Shown here: positions 9,084 through 19,643 of the stretch, piece after piece
Position numbering within the stretch: the stretch's first letter is position 1
Layout of the letters: each line of letters begins with the position of its first letter
Sequence record: PV660457
Length of the DNA: 52,748 bases
Strand: one strand, 5' to 3'
Source: Escherichia phage LF82-19
The notes under the pieces: generated by a model
Told to the model about the DNA's origin: nothing
What the model saw: only the letters and a program-made list of their open reading frames with translations
Database searches by the model: none
Made by a program: the position numbers and the translations under genes

Positions 9084-9764
9084 ATGGCACTTCCTAACGG
9101 TTCACAGGTCTTCATTGAGCAGACACGATCCATAACCGAAGTTGAAGCAACGAGCATCACCAACTCGAAAGAGCCAGTTGCGACGGTTGCCGATATTGGC
9201 GATCTGGTAAATGGTGATTACGTGCTGGTTCTCGAATCAGTATGGGCAGGTCTGAAAAACCGCGTCCTTCGCGTCAAGTCTATTGATGCGCTGAAGGTAA
9301 CTCTTGAGGGTGACGGCAGCACGGACACGAGCAACATCAACAAGTTCCCGGCTGGCGGCGCATCAACGCTGGTGAAGATCACAAGCTGGATTGAAATCCC
9401 ATGTATCAGCGACATCGCCAAAACTGGTGGCGAACAGCAGTTTTACACCAAGCAGTGTTTAGCTGATGAGCGAGAGAAGCAAACGCCAACCTTCAAGTCT
9501 GCAACGTCGATCGGCTACACGTTCGATTTCGACTACGCAAACCCGATTACTCAACTCCTGATCGGTTACGACGAAGACGGCAAAACCCGCGCGATGCGTA
9601 TGTTCGTTCCAAAGGCGAGCTACCCGATCCGCACCTTCTCTGGCGTGCCATCGTTCGACGATGTGCCAAACACGGTGATGAACGAAGACGAAACAACCGT
9701 CCTCAACATTTCCCTTGATGGCAAGTATACGCACATGAAGGAATATGTTGCACCGACACCATAA
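9084..9764 (+). CDS. major tail protein
   Basis: 226 aa, followed by terminator then chaperone pair and tape measure (lambda V-G-T-H order). Confidence 0.6.
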   Translation: MALPNGSQVFIEQTRSITEVEATSITNSKEPVATVADIGDLVNGDYVLVLESVWAGLKNRVLRVKSIDALKVTLEGDGSTDTSNINKFPAGGASTLVKITSWIEIPCISDIAKTGGEQQFYTKQCLADEREKQTPTFKSATSIGYTFDFDYANPITQLLIGYDEDGKTRAMRMFVPKASYPIRTFSGVPSFDDVPNTVMNEDETTVLNISLDGKYTHMKEYVAPTP

Positions 9765-9768
9765 TCCG

Positions 9769-9798
9769 AAGGGGGGCTATTGCTCCCCTTTTTCTTTT
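9769..9798 (+). terminator. rho-independent terminator
   Basis: GGGGGGC-tatt-GCTCCCC then TTTTTCTTTT. Confidence 0.5.
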
Positions 9799-9840: not shown

Positions 9841-10158
9841 ATGTCATTCAAAGTTAAACTGTCCGAGCGCCTCCCTGACTTCCCGCTTGATGTGAAATTC
9901 AACCTTCCGAACGGCACCGAGGCCGAAATTAAATTCACCGTCAAATCACTGAAGGCAAGCGAAGTTCAGGAGCTTTACACCAAGGCTGGCGAGGGCACTG
10001 GCGCTGAGTTCATTACCGCGCTGGCTACCGGGTGGAACCTGGAGGATGAATTTAACGAAGCCAACCAGAACGAGCTGGTAGACAGCTACCCGGCTGTAGT
10101 TCTTGCGCTGGTTTCCGCATACATGGAAGCGCTAGCGGGGTATCGAGCAAAAAACTAA
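9841..10158 (+). CDS. tail assembly chaperone (G-like)
   Basis: 105 aa acidic protein before tape measure; ends just after slippery heptamer. Confidence 0.6.
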   Translation: MSFKVKLSERLPDFPLDVKFNLPNGTEAEIKFTVKSLKASEVQELYTKAGEGTGAEFITALATGWNLEDEFNEANQNELVDSYPAVVLALVSAYMEALAGYRAKN

Positions 10159-10469
10159 AAAGGGCAGTCGAGCTAATGTATCGACGAGTGCCCACAGAAG
10201 CAGAGCTTGCCGATTACGGCCTGACAATGGAAGATTACCTAAATGAAGACCCTGAGATCTTAGAGTTTGATTCAGAGCTTTATGCGTCATGGGAAATGTT
10301 TTGCGCGATGCAAACACAGTGGCGATCTTCCGGCGTTGGCGCAATTGGCCTTGATTATAACGTGTTGCCTATGTTGTTCCGAATCTATAAAATAGAAGAC
10401 GAAGAACTAGCCTTAAACGACGTGCGAATCATGGAAGCGGAAGCGCTGAAACGTATGCACAAAAAATAA
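9841..10469 (+). CDS. tail assembly chaperone fusion (GT-like) via -1 frameshift at 10149-10155
   Basis: heptamer A_AAA_AAC in frame at 10149-10155; -1 frame continues into ORF 10176-10469 without a stop. Confidence 0.5.
10149..10155 (+). other. programmed -1 ribosomal frameshift slippery site
   Basis: X_XXY_YYZ = A_AAA_AAC in correct phase, 3 nt before the G-like stop codon. Confidence 0.55.
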
Positions 10470-10490
10470 GCGCCTTCGGGCGCTTTTCTT
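10470..10490 (+). terminator. rho-independent terminator
   Basis: GCGCC-ttcg-GGCGC then TTTTCTT. Confidence 0.5.
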
Positions 10491-10503
10491 ATATGGGGGT
10501 TTT

Positions 10504-13203
10504 ATGACCGAACAGTATGCAGGTTTGAGCCTTGAAGTTGACGTGTCGCAGGTTGACAAAGCTGCGGTTTCGCTTGAGAACTTCGCGAAGGCGAATGACA
10601 CGGCTGCGAAGGGTGTTGATAAGTTTATCAACCAGGAGCAGGTTGCACGCCAGAAACAAAAGGAATACGTAGAGGAGATCAAGAAGGGTAACGCCGAGTT
10701 TGCCAGGATCGAGAAGGTCATTGACCCGGCAGTGTCAAAGATCAAGCAATTGCAAACCGCTGGCGCAGATCTCGAAAAGCTATGGCAGAAAGGGCTTGTG
10801 CCTGATGAGCGCTTTTTCCAGTTGGGTGACGTTATCGACACTCAGATCGGGGCGCTGAAGAAGTCACAGCAAGCACTGACTGAGGAAGGCCGCGCAGCAC
10901 TGGAAAACGCGAAGGCGAAAGCACAGGCGCAACGTGACGGCGATCGCTTCATCAAGCAGTTGCAGGAGCAAGCCAACGCCGCAACCATGACCAAGACCGA
11001 GATCTTAGAAATGAAGGCCGCGCAGTTGGGCGTTACGGCACAGGCCGCGCCACTGATCGCAGCCATGAACAAGCAGACTAGCGCCATCAATCTTGCTGGC
11101 ATTTCGGCTGGGCAGTACAACCAGGCAATGCGAATGCTTCCGGCGCAGATCACGGACGTTGTGACTTCATTAGCATCAGGGATGCCTGTTTGGCTTGTTG
11201 CCATCCAGCAGGGCGGCCAGATCAAGGACAGCTTCGGCGGAATCGGTAACACGTTCAAAGTGTTGTTGTCTTACCTCAATCCGCTTAATGTTGGCATTGG
11301 CCTGACGGTTGGCGCGCTGGGCGCTCTCATCTTCCAGGTTGTGAAGGCTCGCGGAGAGATTACGGCAGCGCAGAAAGCCGTTGCAGAGTCATTGGGCATG
11401 ACTGGTGATTACGCCGATAAGCTGGCGTTAAACCTTCGCAACATTGCTGACGCTTCAAAGCAGACAGCAGAGGAGGCGGCTAAGGCTTTCATTTCCACGA
11501 AAGATAAAGCGGCAGAGGCACAGGCCAAACTGATTGATGTTGGTTTCAGCTACGACGAAGCGCGCCAGATGGTTGAGAAGTACAAAGGATCGTCTGATTT
11601 CACTTTCCTTAACACGGAGATTGAGCGCCATCGCCTTGAGGTGCTGGGCATTAAAGATGCGTGGAGTGATGCGGCTGAGGAAGTCAAGAACTACTACACC
11701 GGGGCGAAGGAAGGCAAGCAAAGCGTAGCGCTGGGCGGCGCGATTGACCCTATCATCAAGATCATCGAGCGTGCCAAAAATCTCCAGGTTGAGACTAACA
11801 AGGCGCGAATCGAAGGTAACAAGATCGTAAATGATACCGTCAACCTCGTTGAAAAAGAGTACCTTGCAAGCAACCGCGTTGCTGCGGCTAAGAAGGCTCT
11901 TACTGAGGCCGAGAAGTACGCGAAAACAATCGCGGCATCCGGCAACGCTGAGGCGATCAAGCAGTCGAAAGAGCTGATTGAGATTCGCAAGAAGGAGATC
12001 AAGCAAGCTGAGGAGGCTGAAGCGAAGAAGAACAAGCCTAAGAAAGTTTCACAGGGCGCAATTGTTCGATCGCCTGAAGAGCAGCTTGACAAAGAGCTTT
12101 ACACGCTCAAAGCTCAGTTGAAGGTGTTGCAGGAGCATCAAAACATCGGTGAGCGCATTTCAAGCCAGCGTAAATCATTGTGGAGCGTTGAGGCTCAGAT
12201 CTCAATCCTTCAGGAAGCGCAGAGTAAGCGCCGATTGTCGAATGAGGAAAAGGCGTTGCTGACGAGCCAGCAAAAGGTGCTGGCGATGGCTCAGGAGAAA
12301 GCGGAGTTAGGCGATCAGATTTTGGCTCAAGAGAAGTTAAACGCTCTTAATGACAAATCGCTTGCCTTTGTGATCCAAATGAACCAGTCAGCACAAGCCC
12401 TCAACGAAACACGCGCCATGGGCAACCGTGAGGCAGAGCGTGCGGCGGCGAAGGCTAAGATCACCTCTGATTACATGGCGCAGGGTGGCGGCAAGGATGA
12501 TGCAGCGTTGCAGAAGATGATCAAAGCACAGGACGACTACTACGCGGCTGAAGATGCGAAGCGTGCAGACTGGTTAGCCGGGGCGAAAAACGCCTTTGCC
12601 AACTACGGTGACGCGGCAACGGATATGTACTCCAACGTTGGGCAGATTGCCAGCAGCGCGCTTAACGGAATGTCAGATATGATGGCGGAGTTTCTCATGA
12701 CGGGCAAAGCCAACTTTGAGGACTTCGCGAAGAGCATCATCAGCCAGATCATTAAGATGATCACACAGATGGTAATCTTTAACAGCATTTCCGGCATGAT
12801 GGGCGGCGGCGGTTGGTCATTCGCTGGTGCTGGTTTCTCTGGTGGTGGCTACACTGGCGACGGCGGGAAGTATCAGCCAGCCGGAACGGTTCACCGTGGC
12901 GAGTTTGTCATGACCAAGGAAGCAACAAAGAGGATTGGCGTTGACAACCTGTATCGACTGATGCGAGGCTATGCTAACGGCGGTTATGTTGGCGGCTCAT
13001 CTTCCGGCACTGGTGCTGGCGGTAGCTTCGGCGGCGGATTCTCTCTGACGATTGGCAGCATCCCGGTTGACGTGAACAACGGAGGCGATCCGAAAGGCAT
13101 GGAGCAGGGAATTAAGGCAATCTTCCAGCAGATGATTCAGGAGTCATGCGCGCAGGGAGGAGAGGTTTACAACTTCATTCAACAGAAAACAGGAGCGGGT
13201 TAA
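10504..13203 (+). CDS. tail tape measure protein
   Basis: 899 aa, long coiled-coil Ala/Lys/Glu/Gln-rich region, C-terminal Gly-rich segment, position after chaperones. Confidence 0.85.
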   Translation: MTEQYAGLSLEVDVSQVDKAAVSLENFAKANDTAAKGVDKFINQEQVARQKQKEYVEEIKKGNAEFARIEKVIDPAVSKIKQLQTAGADLEKLWQKGLVPDERFFQLGDVIDTQIGALKKSQQALTEEGRAALENAKAKAQAQRDGDRFIKQLQEQANAATMTKTEILEMKAAQLGVTAQAAPLIAAMNKQTSAINLAGISAGQYNQAMRMLPAQITDVVTSLASGMPVWLVAIQQGGQIKDSFGGIGNTFKVLLSYLNPLNVGIGLTVGALGALIFQVVKARGEITAAQKAVAESLGMTGDYADKLALNLRNIADASKQTAEEAAKAFISTKDKAAEAQAKLIDVGFSYDEARQMVEKYKGSSDFTFLNTEIERHRLEVLGIKDAWSDAAEEVKNYYTGAKEGKQSVALGGAIDPIIKIIERAKNLQVETNKARIEGNKIVNDTVNLVEKEYLASNRVAAAKKALTEAEKYAKTIAASGNAEAIKQSKELIEIRKKEIKQAEEAEAKKNKPKKVSQGAIVRSPEEQLDKELYTLKAQLKVLQEHQNIGERISSQRKSLWSVEAQISILQEAQSKRRLSNEEKALLTSQQKVLAMAQEKAELGDQILAQEKLNALNDKSLAFVIQMNQSAQALNETRAMGNREAERAAAKAKITSDYMAQGGGKDDAALQKMIKAQDDYYAAEDAKRADWLAGAKNAFANYGDAATDMYSNVGQIASSALNGMSDMMAEFLMTGKANFEDFAKSIISQIIKMITQMVIFNSISGMMGGGGWSFAGAGFSGGGYTGDGGKYQPAGTVHRGEFVMTKEATKRIGVDNLYRLMRGYANGGYVGGSSSGTGAGGSFGGGFSLTIGSIPVDVNNGGDPKGMEQGIKAIFQQMIQESCAQGGEVYNFIQQKTGAG

Positions 13204-13550
13204 TGGCACTTGATATTTTTAAATGGTGCGTGCAGTTGCAGAATGGCGGTGGCGTGATGAGCGTCACCAACAATGACAGGCAAGTGCAGTTTGGCAACGG
13301 TTTCCGGCAGGTAGGATCTGCTGGGTTCAACACGGAGCGGCGAGAGTATGCGATCGTCTATTTCGGTGAGGACTGGCGCGAGGTTCGGCAATTCCTGCGA
13401 GATCACCGATTGAAACCTTTCGCATTCACGCCACCAGAGGACACGATCGGAATATTCTTGCTGAAGCCTGACACTCTGGCAACCGCACCAAAGGGTAAAG
13501 GTTTGCTTGAGGTAACTTGCACACTTGTAGAACAATTCACAGCAGCGTAA
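13203..13550 (+). CDS. minor tail protein (lambda M-like)
   Basis: ATG 13203 overlapping TMP stop (TAATG); first of M-L-K-I-J order. Confidence 0.65.
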   Translation: MALDIFKWCVQLQNGGGVMSVTNNDRQVQFGNGFRQVGSAGFNTERREYAIVYFGEDWREVRQFLRDHRLKPFAFTPPEDTIGIFLLKPDTLATAPKGKGLLEVTCTLVEQFTAA

Positions 13551-19312: not shown

Positions 19313-19643
19313 ACATCACTTTATTGTAGATAACCGGGCTTCGGCTGGTTTGCTGGGTAATCATGTCAAGCTTGTATTCAGCGCCGCGATTCCACTCGAA
19401 GCGTAGCGTATAAGTGTTTACGTCGCCGTAGCACATTACGTGTTTGAACTTGCGCAGGTGCTTATCAAATATCACGTTTGTGCTTTCTTCAATATTCACC
19501 GTCCGATCCTGGCAGTTTACAACCGCCACGGTTGAGCCAGTAAGAGACATTCTGGAAGCGTCAACCGGATATCCGATATTAACGTTCAAAGCCATAGCGT
19601 TTAAAGGAGCTAAGAGAGCCATAGCGAGCATGATTTTTTCCAT
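19311..19643 (-). CDS. secreted small protein (signal peptide)
   Basis: start at MEKIM (RBS GAGGAA 7 nt upstream); N-terminus MLAMALLAPLNAMA looks like a signal peptidase I substrate; track ORF to 19688 is an extension. Confidence 0.45.
   Translation of the reverse strand: MEKIMLAMALLAPLNAMALNVNIGYPVDASRMSLTGSTVAVVNCQDRTVNIEESTNVIFDKHLRKFKHVMCYGDVNTYTLRFEWNRGAEYKLDMITQQTSRSPVIYNKVM

Follow-up and report, generated by a model that had tools for sequence, protein, structure and literature searches.

The -1 frameshift that joins the G and T reading frames of phage lambda is reportedly described in work by Levin, Hendrix and Casjens (1993) and by Xu, Hendrix and Duda (2004, 2013 and 2014), and the 2004 study is said to present the tail chaperone G/GT frameshift as conserved among long-tailed dsDNA phages. 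A spiral fold for tail assembly chaperones was reportedly described by Pell et al. in 2013. In lambda, the ratio of G to GT is 30:1, and the partners that G and T bind are the tape measure protein and the tube protein, respectively (PMC5009743). A tail chaperone frameshift has already been described in T1-like phages (PMC4319613, PMC8104045), and that of E. coli phage U136B is annotated likewise (PMC8104045). The genes of Citrobacter phage Stevie (gp15/gp16) and of Klebsiella phage Sanco are annotated as joined coding sequences in two pieces, 632 and 641 nt long; both lengths are 2 mod 3 and thus fit a -1 shift. Further afield, gp12/gp13 of Acinetobacter phage Loki carry AAAAAAC adjacent to the stop codon (PMC5313236).

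We analyzed a stretch of 52,748 nt from Escherichia phage LF82-19 (PV660457), referred to here as the window, which is 100% identical to Escherichia phages LF82-10, -11, -12 and -40. Relatives of these LF82 phages include two genera of Drexlerviridae, Vilniusvirus (NBD2) and Nouzillyvirus (TH27, 50EP). Based upon the evidence set out below, we consider it highly probable that the locus uses a real -1 programmed frameshift to make a short and a long tail chaperone, namely a short G protein and a 209-aa GT protein. The features of the locus are as follows:

9084 to 9764, + strand: tail tube (major tail) gene, the upstream neighbor (Phage_tail_3, E=1.6e-47; named major tail protein in PV660453)
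9768 to 9791, + strand: terminator-like hairpin with a T-run, between the tube and G-like genes (same layout annotated in T1 and Stevie)
9841 to 10158, + strand: zero-frame ORF of 105 aa for the G-like tail assembly chaperone (Phage_TAC_4)
10149 to 10155, + strand: slippery heptamer A_AAA_AAC, in phase, ending with the last sense codon
10155 to 10469, + strand: T-like part of the fusion, in the -1 frame, with 104 codons and a stop (DUF1799; phrog_17368; -1 periodicity)
10156 to 10158, + strand: zero-frame stop TAA directly 3' of the heptamer, with a possible 'shifty stop' contribution
10162 to 10193, + strand: RNA hairpin found by folding energy, a candidate stimulatory structure separated from the heptamer by a 6-nt spacer
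10176 to 10178, + strand: ATG given as the start of a separate T coding sequence in the GenBank record
10468 to 10485, + strand: terminator-like hairpin overlapping the T stop, just 5' of the tape measure gene
10504 to 13203, + strand: tape measure gene, the downstream neighbor and presumed chaperone client (TMP_2, E=1e-34; Tape_meas_lam_C, E=3.8e-25)

The G-like ORF starts at ATG 9841, with a Shine-Dalgarno (SD) sequence, GAGGA, 8 nt upstream (-5.8 kcal/mol). Its last codons are GCA (10147), AAA (10150), AAC (10153) and TAA (10156), which places the heptamer in the phase X_XXY_YYZ, as the initial annotation had it. The same annotation put the heptamer 3 nt before the stop; this is best taken to mean that AAC is the last sense codon, as the heptamer adjoins TAA without a gap. 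Its account of the -1 frame as open from 10155 to 10469 is correct at the downstream end, but the frame is already open from 10056 and runs to the TAA at 10467-10469, so that it overlaps the G-like ORF by 100 nt, or 34 codons. Exactly one slippery heptamer within this overlap is in phase, the A_AAA_AAC at 10149-10155, and no other candidate slip site in the overlap has the proper phase. A -1 shift at this position would give a fusion of 209 aa, made up of 105 upstream residues and 104 new ones.

Protein families and gene order both place the two reading frames in a tail module. The G-like ORF matches Pfam Phage_TAC_4 (PF08748, T1 gp40-like) with E=1.9e-28 and 99.6 bits against a gathering cut-off of 21.1, its residues 1-105 aligning to profile positions 1-124 of 124, and it also matches phrog_569. 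The -1 segment matches DUF1799 (PF08809, TLS TfmB-like) with E=9.4e-13 and 48.6 bits against a cut-off of 26, its residues 22-101 covering profile positions 2-80 of 80. In the 213-position profile of phrog_17368, G aligns to positions 4-107 and T to positions 109-211; since G and then T are covered by a single profile, this family was built from fused products. The two chaperone ORFs sit between the tube and tape measure genes, and further neighbors match Pfam families of a tail terminator protein and of lambda M- and L-like minor tail proteins (Phage_min_tail, Phage_tail_L). These Pfam matches, rather than the frameshift, are what confirm the tail module, contrary to the initial suggestion that the shift does so independently. 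The central proposal that a -1 frameshift joins two tail chaperone ORFs is supported by the families, the synteny, the reading frame, the conserved heptamer and the annotated homologues. Structure added little: an AlphaFold2 single-sequence model was poor (mean pLDDT 63), a Foldseek search of this model against the PDB gave no match at E<=0.001, and a PDB sequence search found no relative of the chaperone proteins.

The locus has the sequence features of the G/GT class, with its position between the tube and tape measure genes, a -1 overlap and an in-phase slippery site near the end of the ORF. As in lambda, there are two overlapping ORFs, the first of which has a heptamer of the form X_XXY_YYZ close to its 3' end, so that a short and a C-terminally extended product are predicted from the sequence. 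By their Pfam matches (Tape_meas_lam_C, Phage_min_tail, Phage_tail_L), the neighboring tape measure and minor tail proteins are also of the lambda type. Yet the heptamer is A_AAA_AAC rather than the G_GGA_AAG of lambda, and in lambda a few codons separate the slip site from the G stop, while here the heptamer adjoins it. Chaperone function and product ratio, moreover, are measured quantities for lambda only. The lambda gpG and gpT families, which we take to be Pfam Phage_TAC_2 and Phage_tail_T, were not matched in a Pfam scan of both segments at E<=0.01, which returned only PF08748 and PF08809. Thus, the claim that the locus reproduces the conserved lambda G/GT mechanism holds for the mechanism and the synteny, but not for the proteins, which show no detectable sequence homology and belong to other Pfam families.

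The closest counterparts are the T1-like Drexlerviridae, with which the locus shares orthologous proteins (53-66% identity in the G part and 61-77% in the T part for the closer relatives), the gene order, the LKRAV start of the -1 segment and often a downstream hairpin. Stevie and T1 (genes 40/39) also have A_AAA_AAC adjoining the stop. Sanco differs from this phage in having A AAA GTT and no canonical heptamer. A_AAA_AAC likewise serves the tail chaperone shift of Loki gp12/gp13 and of the haloarchaeal virus HCTV-2 (g-t), although the hosts of both are unrelated to that of this phage. E. coli dnaX provides a parallel of another kind, with a heptamer rich in Lys codons that is decoded in E. 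coli and followed by a hairpin at 6-nt spacing. It differs in that the last codon of its A_AAA_AAG heptamer is AAG, instead of the AAC (Asn) found here, in that the SD-like element is not conserved and the hairpin not universal among the relatives of this phage, and in that the efficiency expected here is far lower. Given its T1-like counterparts, the locus is orthologous to a signal that has been annotated and published before; it is of a kind already known and involves no new principle.

Could the heptamer be there by chance? AAAAAAC occurs 9 times on the two strands of the window, compared with 13.0 +/- 3.3 in shuffled sequences, and as there is no enrichment we dropped its raw occurrence as an argument. 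Position is more informative: over the 34 codons of overlap, an in-phase X_XXY_YYZ of any kind is expected 0.14 times, and at a single specified position 0.004 times. Of the roughly 58 heptamers that lie in phase across all ORFs of 80 aa or longer, the one at 10149-10155 alone is located at the very end of its ORF and opens a 104-codon -1 extension. In these sequence comparisons, however, the decisive evidence against chance is conservation across relatives. A tblastn search with the fused protein matched 1143 phage records, 919 of which cover at least 80% of the query, and of the 46 high-coverage records listed in an evenly spaced sample, 41 match in two pieces, in two frames. For the junction itself, we compared this phage with 17 distinct relatives (from the tblastn sample and IMG/VR) and T1, giving 19 junctions that keep the -1 arrangement. 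AAAAAAC followed directly by the stop is present in 15 of the 19, including T1, and extends over Tempevirinae, Tunavirinae (T1 itself), Braunvirinae, Rogunavirinae and one Dhillonvirus. Two distant relatives have other canonical heptamers at the same place, AAAGGGT in Klebsiella phage KLB22 and GGGAAAC in a Ralstonia phage. Whatever the heptamer, the stop adjoins the shift site in 18/18 relatives with the -1 arrangement (17 loci and T1). Wherever both halves could be placed in a relative, the arrangement is -1, except in an unverified assembly of phage HCF1.

The slip site and the two-frame layout are conserved beyond what the protein sequences need. Across the relatives, the base 5' of AAA is always A, even though the codon that it completes may specify Ala, Val or Glu, and the codons involved are minority choices in this phage (AAA is 39% of Lys, GTA 17% of Val and GCA 25% of Ala codons). 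Counting only 5 clades as independent, the joint probability of such retention of the heptamer is about 1e-6. Downstream, all Drexlerviridae-like relatives have LKRAV encoded by the -1 frame of the 21 nt after the heptamer. Their entropies at the three codon positions of the -1 frame are 0.32/0.11/1.33, so that variation falls mostly at third positions and the periodicity begins at the slip site. By this measure, the 21 nt after the heptamer evolve as -1-frame coding sequence. The comparative data offer a clean illustration of selection at the nucleotide level on a slippery site, and of candidate stimulators that vary with lineage.

The main rival to frameshifting holds that all T is a free protein of 97 aa that starts at ATG 10176, by independent initiation or by termination-reinitiation. 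The LF82-10/NBD2 lineage does differ from other T1-like relatives in having this extra in-frame ATG at +20, counted from the first base of the G stop, and AAGGG is located upstream of the ATG; the distance between stop and ATG (18 nt) is short enough for reinitiation, and PV660453 and NBD2 annotate a separate T from a start of this type. We nevertheless judge this reading improbable. Among the loci compared, an ATG is found at that place only in this phage and NBD2 (three NBD2 copies), the codon replacing Phe, Tyr, Leu or Gln of other relatives. The T frame of 16 other loci has no ATG until 47-272 nt beyond the G stop, where the conserved DUF1799 is already under way, and in Sanco the sole T-frame ATG is upstream, inside the overlap. 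The 21 nt 5' of ATG 10176 are themselves under -1-frame coding constraint, with the conserved LKRAV. As a start site, ATG 10176 has the weakest and worst-spaced SD sequence of 8 starts tested (-4.4 kcal/mol at 11 nt), and it lies in the apical loop of the hairpin, where its SD sequence is partly buried. A separate T would also leave the conservation of the heptamer against codon preference unexplained. Thus, ATG 10176 is probably just an internal Met codon of GT, though free T could be made from it alongside frameshifting in this phage.

Two other readings concern the A6 run itself. If RNA polymerase added one A to this homopolymer, T would be in frame on some mRNAs, with a junction reading ...AKKLKR. 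For bacterial RNA polymerase to slip productively, some 9 or more consecutive A or T are required, and a run of six is short for it; at the same site, distant relatives have GGGAAAC or AAAGGGT, neither of which contains a long homopolymer. Conservation, moreover, extends to the X_XXY_YYZ phase and its final C rather than to the length of the run. For these reasons we hold transcriptional slippage to be very unlikely. Least credible of all is that the heptamer simply reflects an Ala-Lys-Asn C-terminus and has no recoding function. Its count in the window (9, compared with 13 expected) would fit such a coincidence, but the nucleotide-level conservation persists against codon preference and across amino-acid changes, and DUF1799 is conserved while lacking a start of its own in most relatives. 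The comparative data effectively refute this reading, leaving ribosomal -1 frameshifting as the preferred explanation of the locus.

We also considered elements that could stimulate the shift. A search for a downstream structure, which the initial annotation had proposed as a check, did yield a hairpin at a 6-nt spacer, within the 5-9 nt that a signal of the dnaX type would call for, but one that is neither universal among relatives nor, in this phage, more stable than synonymous recodings would lead one to expect. Its folding energy is -15.1 kcal/mol (z=-4.2), and 0 of 200 shuffled sequences were as stable. An outer stem of GGGCGG/CCGCCC at 6-7 nt spacing is found in about 10 of 18 relatives and in T1, and the hairpin is absent from NBD2, DTL, UDF157lw and others among the relatives compared. 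As RNAalifold gave no consensus structure on 14 relatives, we assessed the hairpin sequence by sequence, by its outer stem and by synonymous recoding. Outer-stem positions pair in 69% of cells, compared with 32-49% when the partners are slid, and covariation is limited to one pair (GC, UA and AU types). In the T1/TLS clade, only 0-2 of 500 synonymous recodings were as stable as the natural sequence, whereas in this phage 49 of 500 were, so that its hairpin does not exceed the expectation from coding constraint. The inner stem here is A-U where relatives have G-C, with a Val codon in place of Pro. Hairpin 10162-10193 may stimulate the shift, as an element that is not universal and is weakly supported in this lineage.

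An upstream SD-like element of the dnaX type, sought about 10 nt 5' of the heptamer, was rejected as a family feature: it is present in this phage, as GGGG (-6.9 kcal/mol), but is not conserved, the relatives having values of -2.5 to -6.1 kcal/mol, much like the coding background (mean -3.2 kcal/mol, with 16% of windows at or below -6). The adjacent stop is the one accompanying feature that is kept in every compared relative with the -1 arrangement. It is possible that it either stimulates shifting or merely minimizes the overlap. Somewhat more speculatively, the stop-adjacent placement, which extends to relatives with no more than A_AAR left of the heptamer, could itself be functional: slow termination would drive the last tRNA to slip in the P site (a 'shifty stop'), the variable hairpin would act as a clade-specific tuner, and the ATG at +20 in LF82-10/NBD2 would add a third product, free T, by termination-reinitiation. 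We regard this combination as doubtful. If true, free T made by reinitiation at the added ATG would change the chaperone stoichiometry in the LF82-10/NBD2 lineage.

In the scheme that we infer, which takes in the occurrence and efficiency of the shift, the roles of both protein parts and a possible stimulatory effect of the stop or the hairpin, ribosomes would translate the G-like gene at 9841-10158, and most would stop at the TAA at 10156 and release the 105-aa chaperone. A minority would slip back one base on A_AAA_AAC, so that the next codon read is CUA at 10155 (10155-10157). These ribosomes would then continue through the DUF1799 segment to 10469, giving the 209-aa GT-type fusion. The expected junction is ...AGYRAKN-LKRAVELMYRR..., and the Glu-C junction peptide is predicted to be ALAGYRAKNLKRAVE. 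By analogy with lambda, the shared G part would bind the tape measure protein and the T part would recruit the tube protein, with a low shift rate setting the G:GT ratio. According to a review of recoding (PMC5009743), E. coli ribosomes shift far less readily on A_AAA_AAC than on A_AAA_AAG. A low-level shift would fit this reported weak slipperiness and would be compatible with a lambda-like ratio of 30:1.

Some relatives deviate at the junction. Klebsiella phage Sanco reads GCA AAA GTT TAA (L012 700-720) and Escherichia phage UDF157lw reads GCA AAG GTC TAA (L013 690-710), in both cases without a canonical heptamer. Both retain the -1 two-frame architecture and the LKRAV/LRRAV start of T, and only A_AAR is conserved. 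As only A_AAR is kept, these sequences suggest that one Lys-tRNA slips alone in the P site. The query matches about 435 records of Klebsiella phages, those sampled scoring like Sanco, and non-canonical sites of the Sanco type may be common. In Citrobacter phage HCF1 (MN545971, L014 680-700), T is instead in frame 0 after the G stop, the sequence being GCG TAA AAA CTA AAA CGG, with A5 in place of A6. We set HCF1 aside as evidence for natural in-frame fusions, given that its record is flagged UNVERIFIED_ASMBLY and differs in homopolymer length; the layout probably stems from misassembly of the homopolymer rather than from natural variation. The matches also include 21 records named as Campylobacter phages (e.g. 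MG065670 A121 and MG065679 A13a), whose GT pair is about 60% identical to that of this phage. Their host label seems doubtful, as these records look like T1-like enterobacterial phages.

What is new at this locus is only the missing annotation of the join; the signal itself is genuine and known. The LF82-10 record has 9841-10158 and 10176-10469 as two coding sequences, both named 'tail length tape measure protein' and not joined, and separate G and T coding sequences are also found in the records of LF82-11, -12 and -40, T1 and NBD2. PV660453 gives this name to both chaperone ORFs as well as to the true tape measure gene (9841-13203), and G and T are misnamed in the same way in the records of LF82-11, -12 and -40 and in the RefSeq copies of T1 and NBD2. 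Because the name matches the PHROG descriptions (phrog_569, 680 and 17368), the chaperones have been misnamed through name propagation. The T1 RefSeq record (NC_005833, L025 18872-19506) shows gene 40 and a truncated gene 39 (19339-19506) without a join, the annotated start of gene 39 being 150 nt after the gene 40 stop. The T1 sequence at this place is GCA AAA AAC TAA, followed by the GGCGGTTT...AAACCGCC hairpin. Since T1 retains the heptamer with no annotated join, even the family's type phage lacks this annotation. The correct annotation would be a joined -1 frameshift coding sequence (9841..10155,10155..10469) with the name 'tail assembly chaperone'. The main value of this result is practical; biologically, it is one more instance of a well-known recoding event.

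The flanks of the G/T pair provide some minor observations. T1 and Stevie have annotated terminators at places equivalent to 9768-9791 and 10468-10485. The stem of the hairpin at 10468-10485 is palindromic, and hence it scores on both strands. These terminator-like hairpins on either side of the G/T pair may tune the relative transcript levels of the tube, chaperone and tape measure genes. Downstream, the longest form of the lambda M-like minor tail ORF (13146-13550) has its start inside the tape measure gene. The annotated and better-supported start of this protein, at 13203, overlaps the tape measure stop in an ATGA-type coupling.
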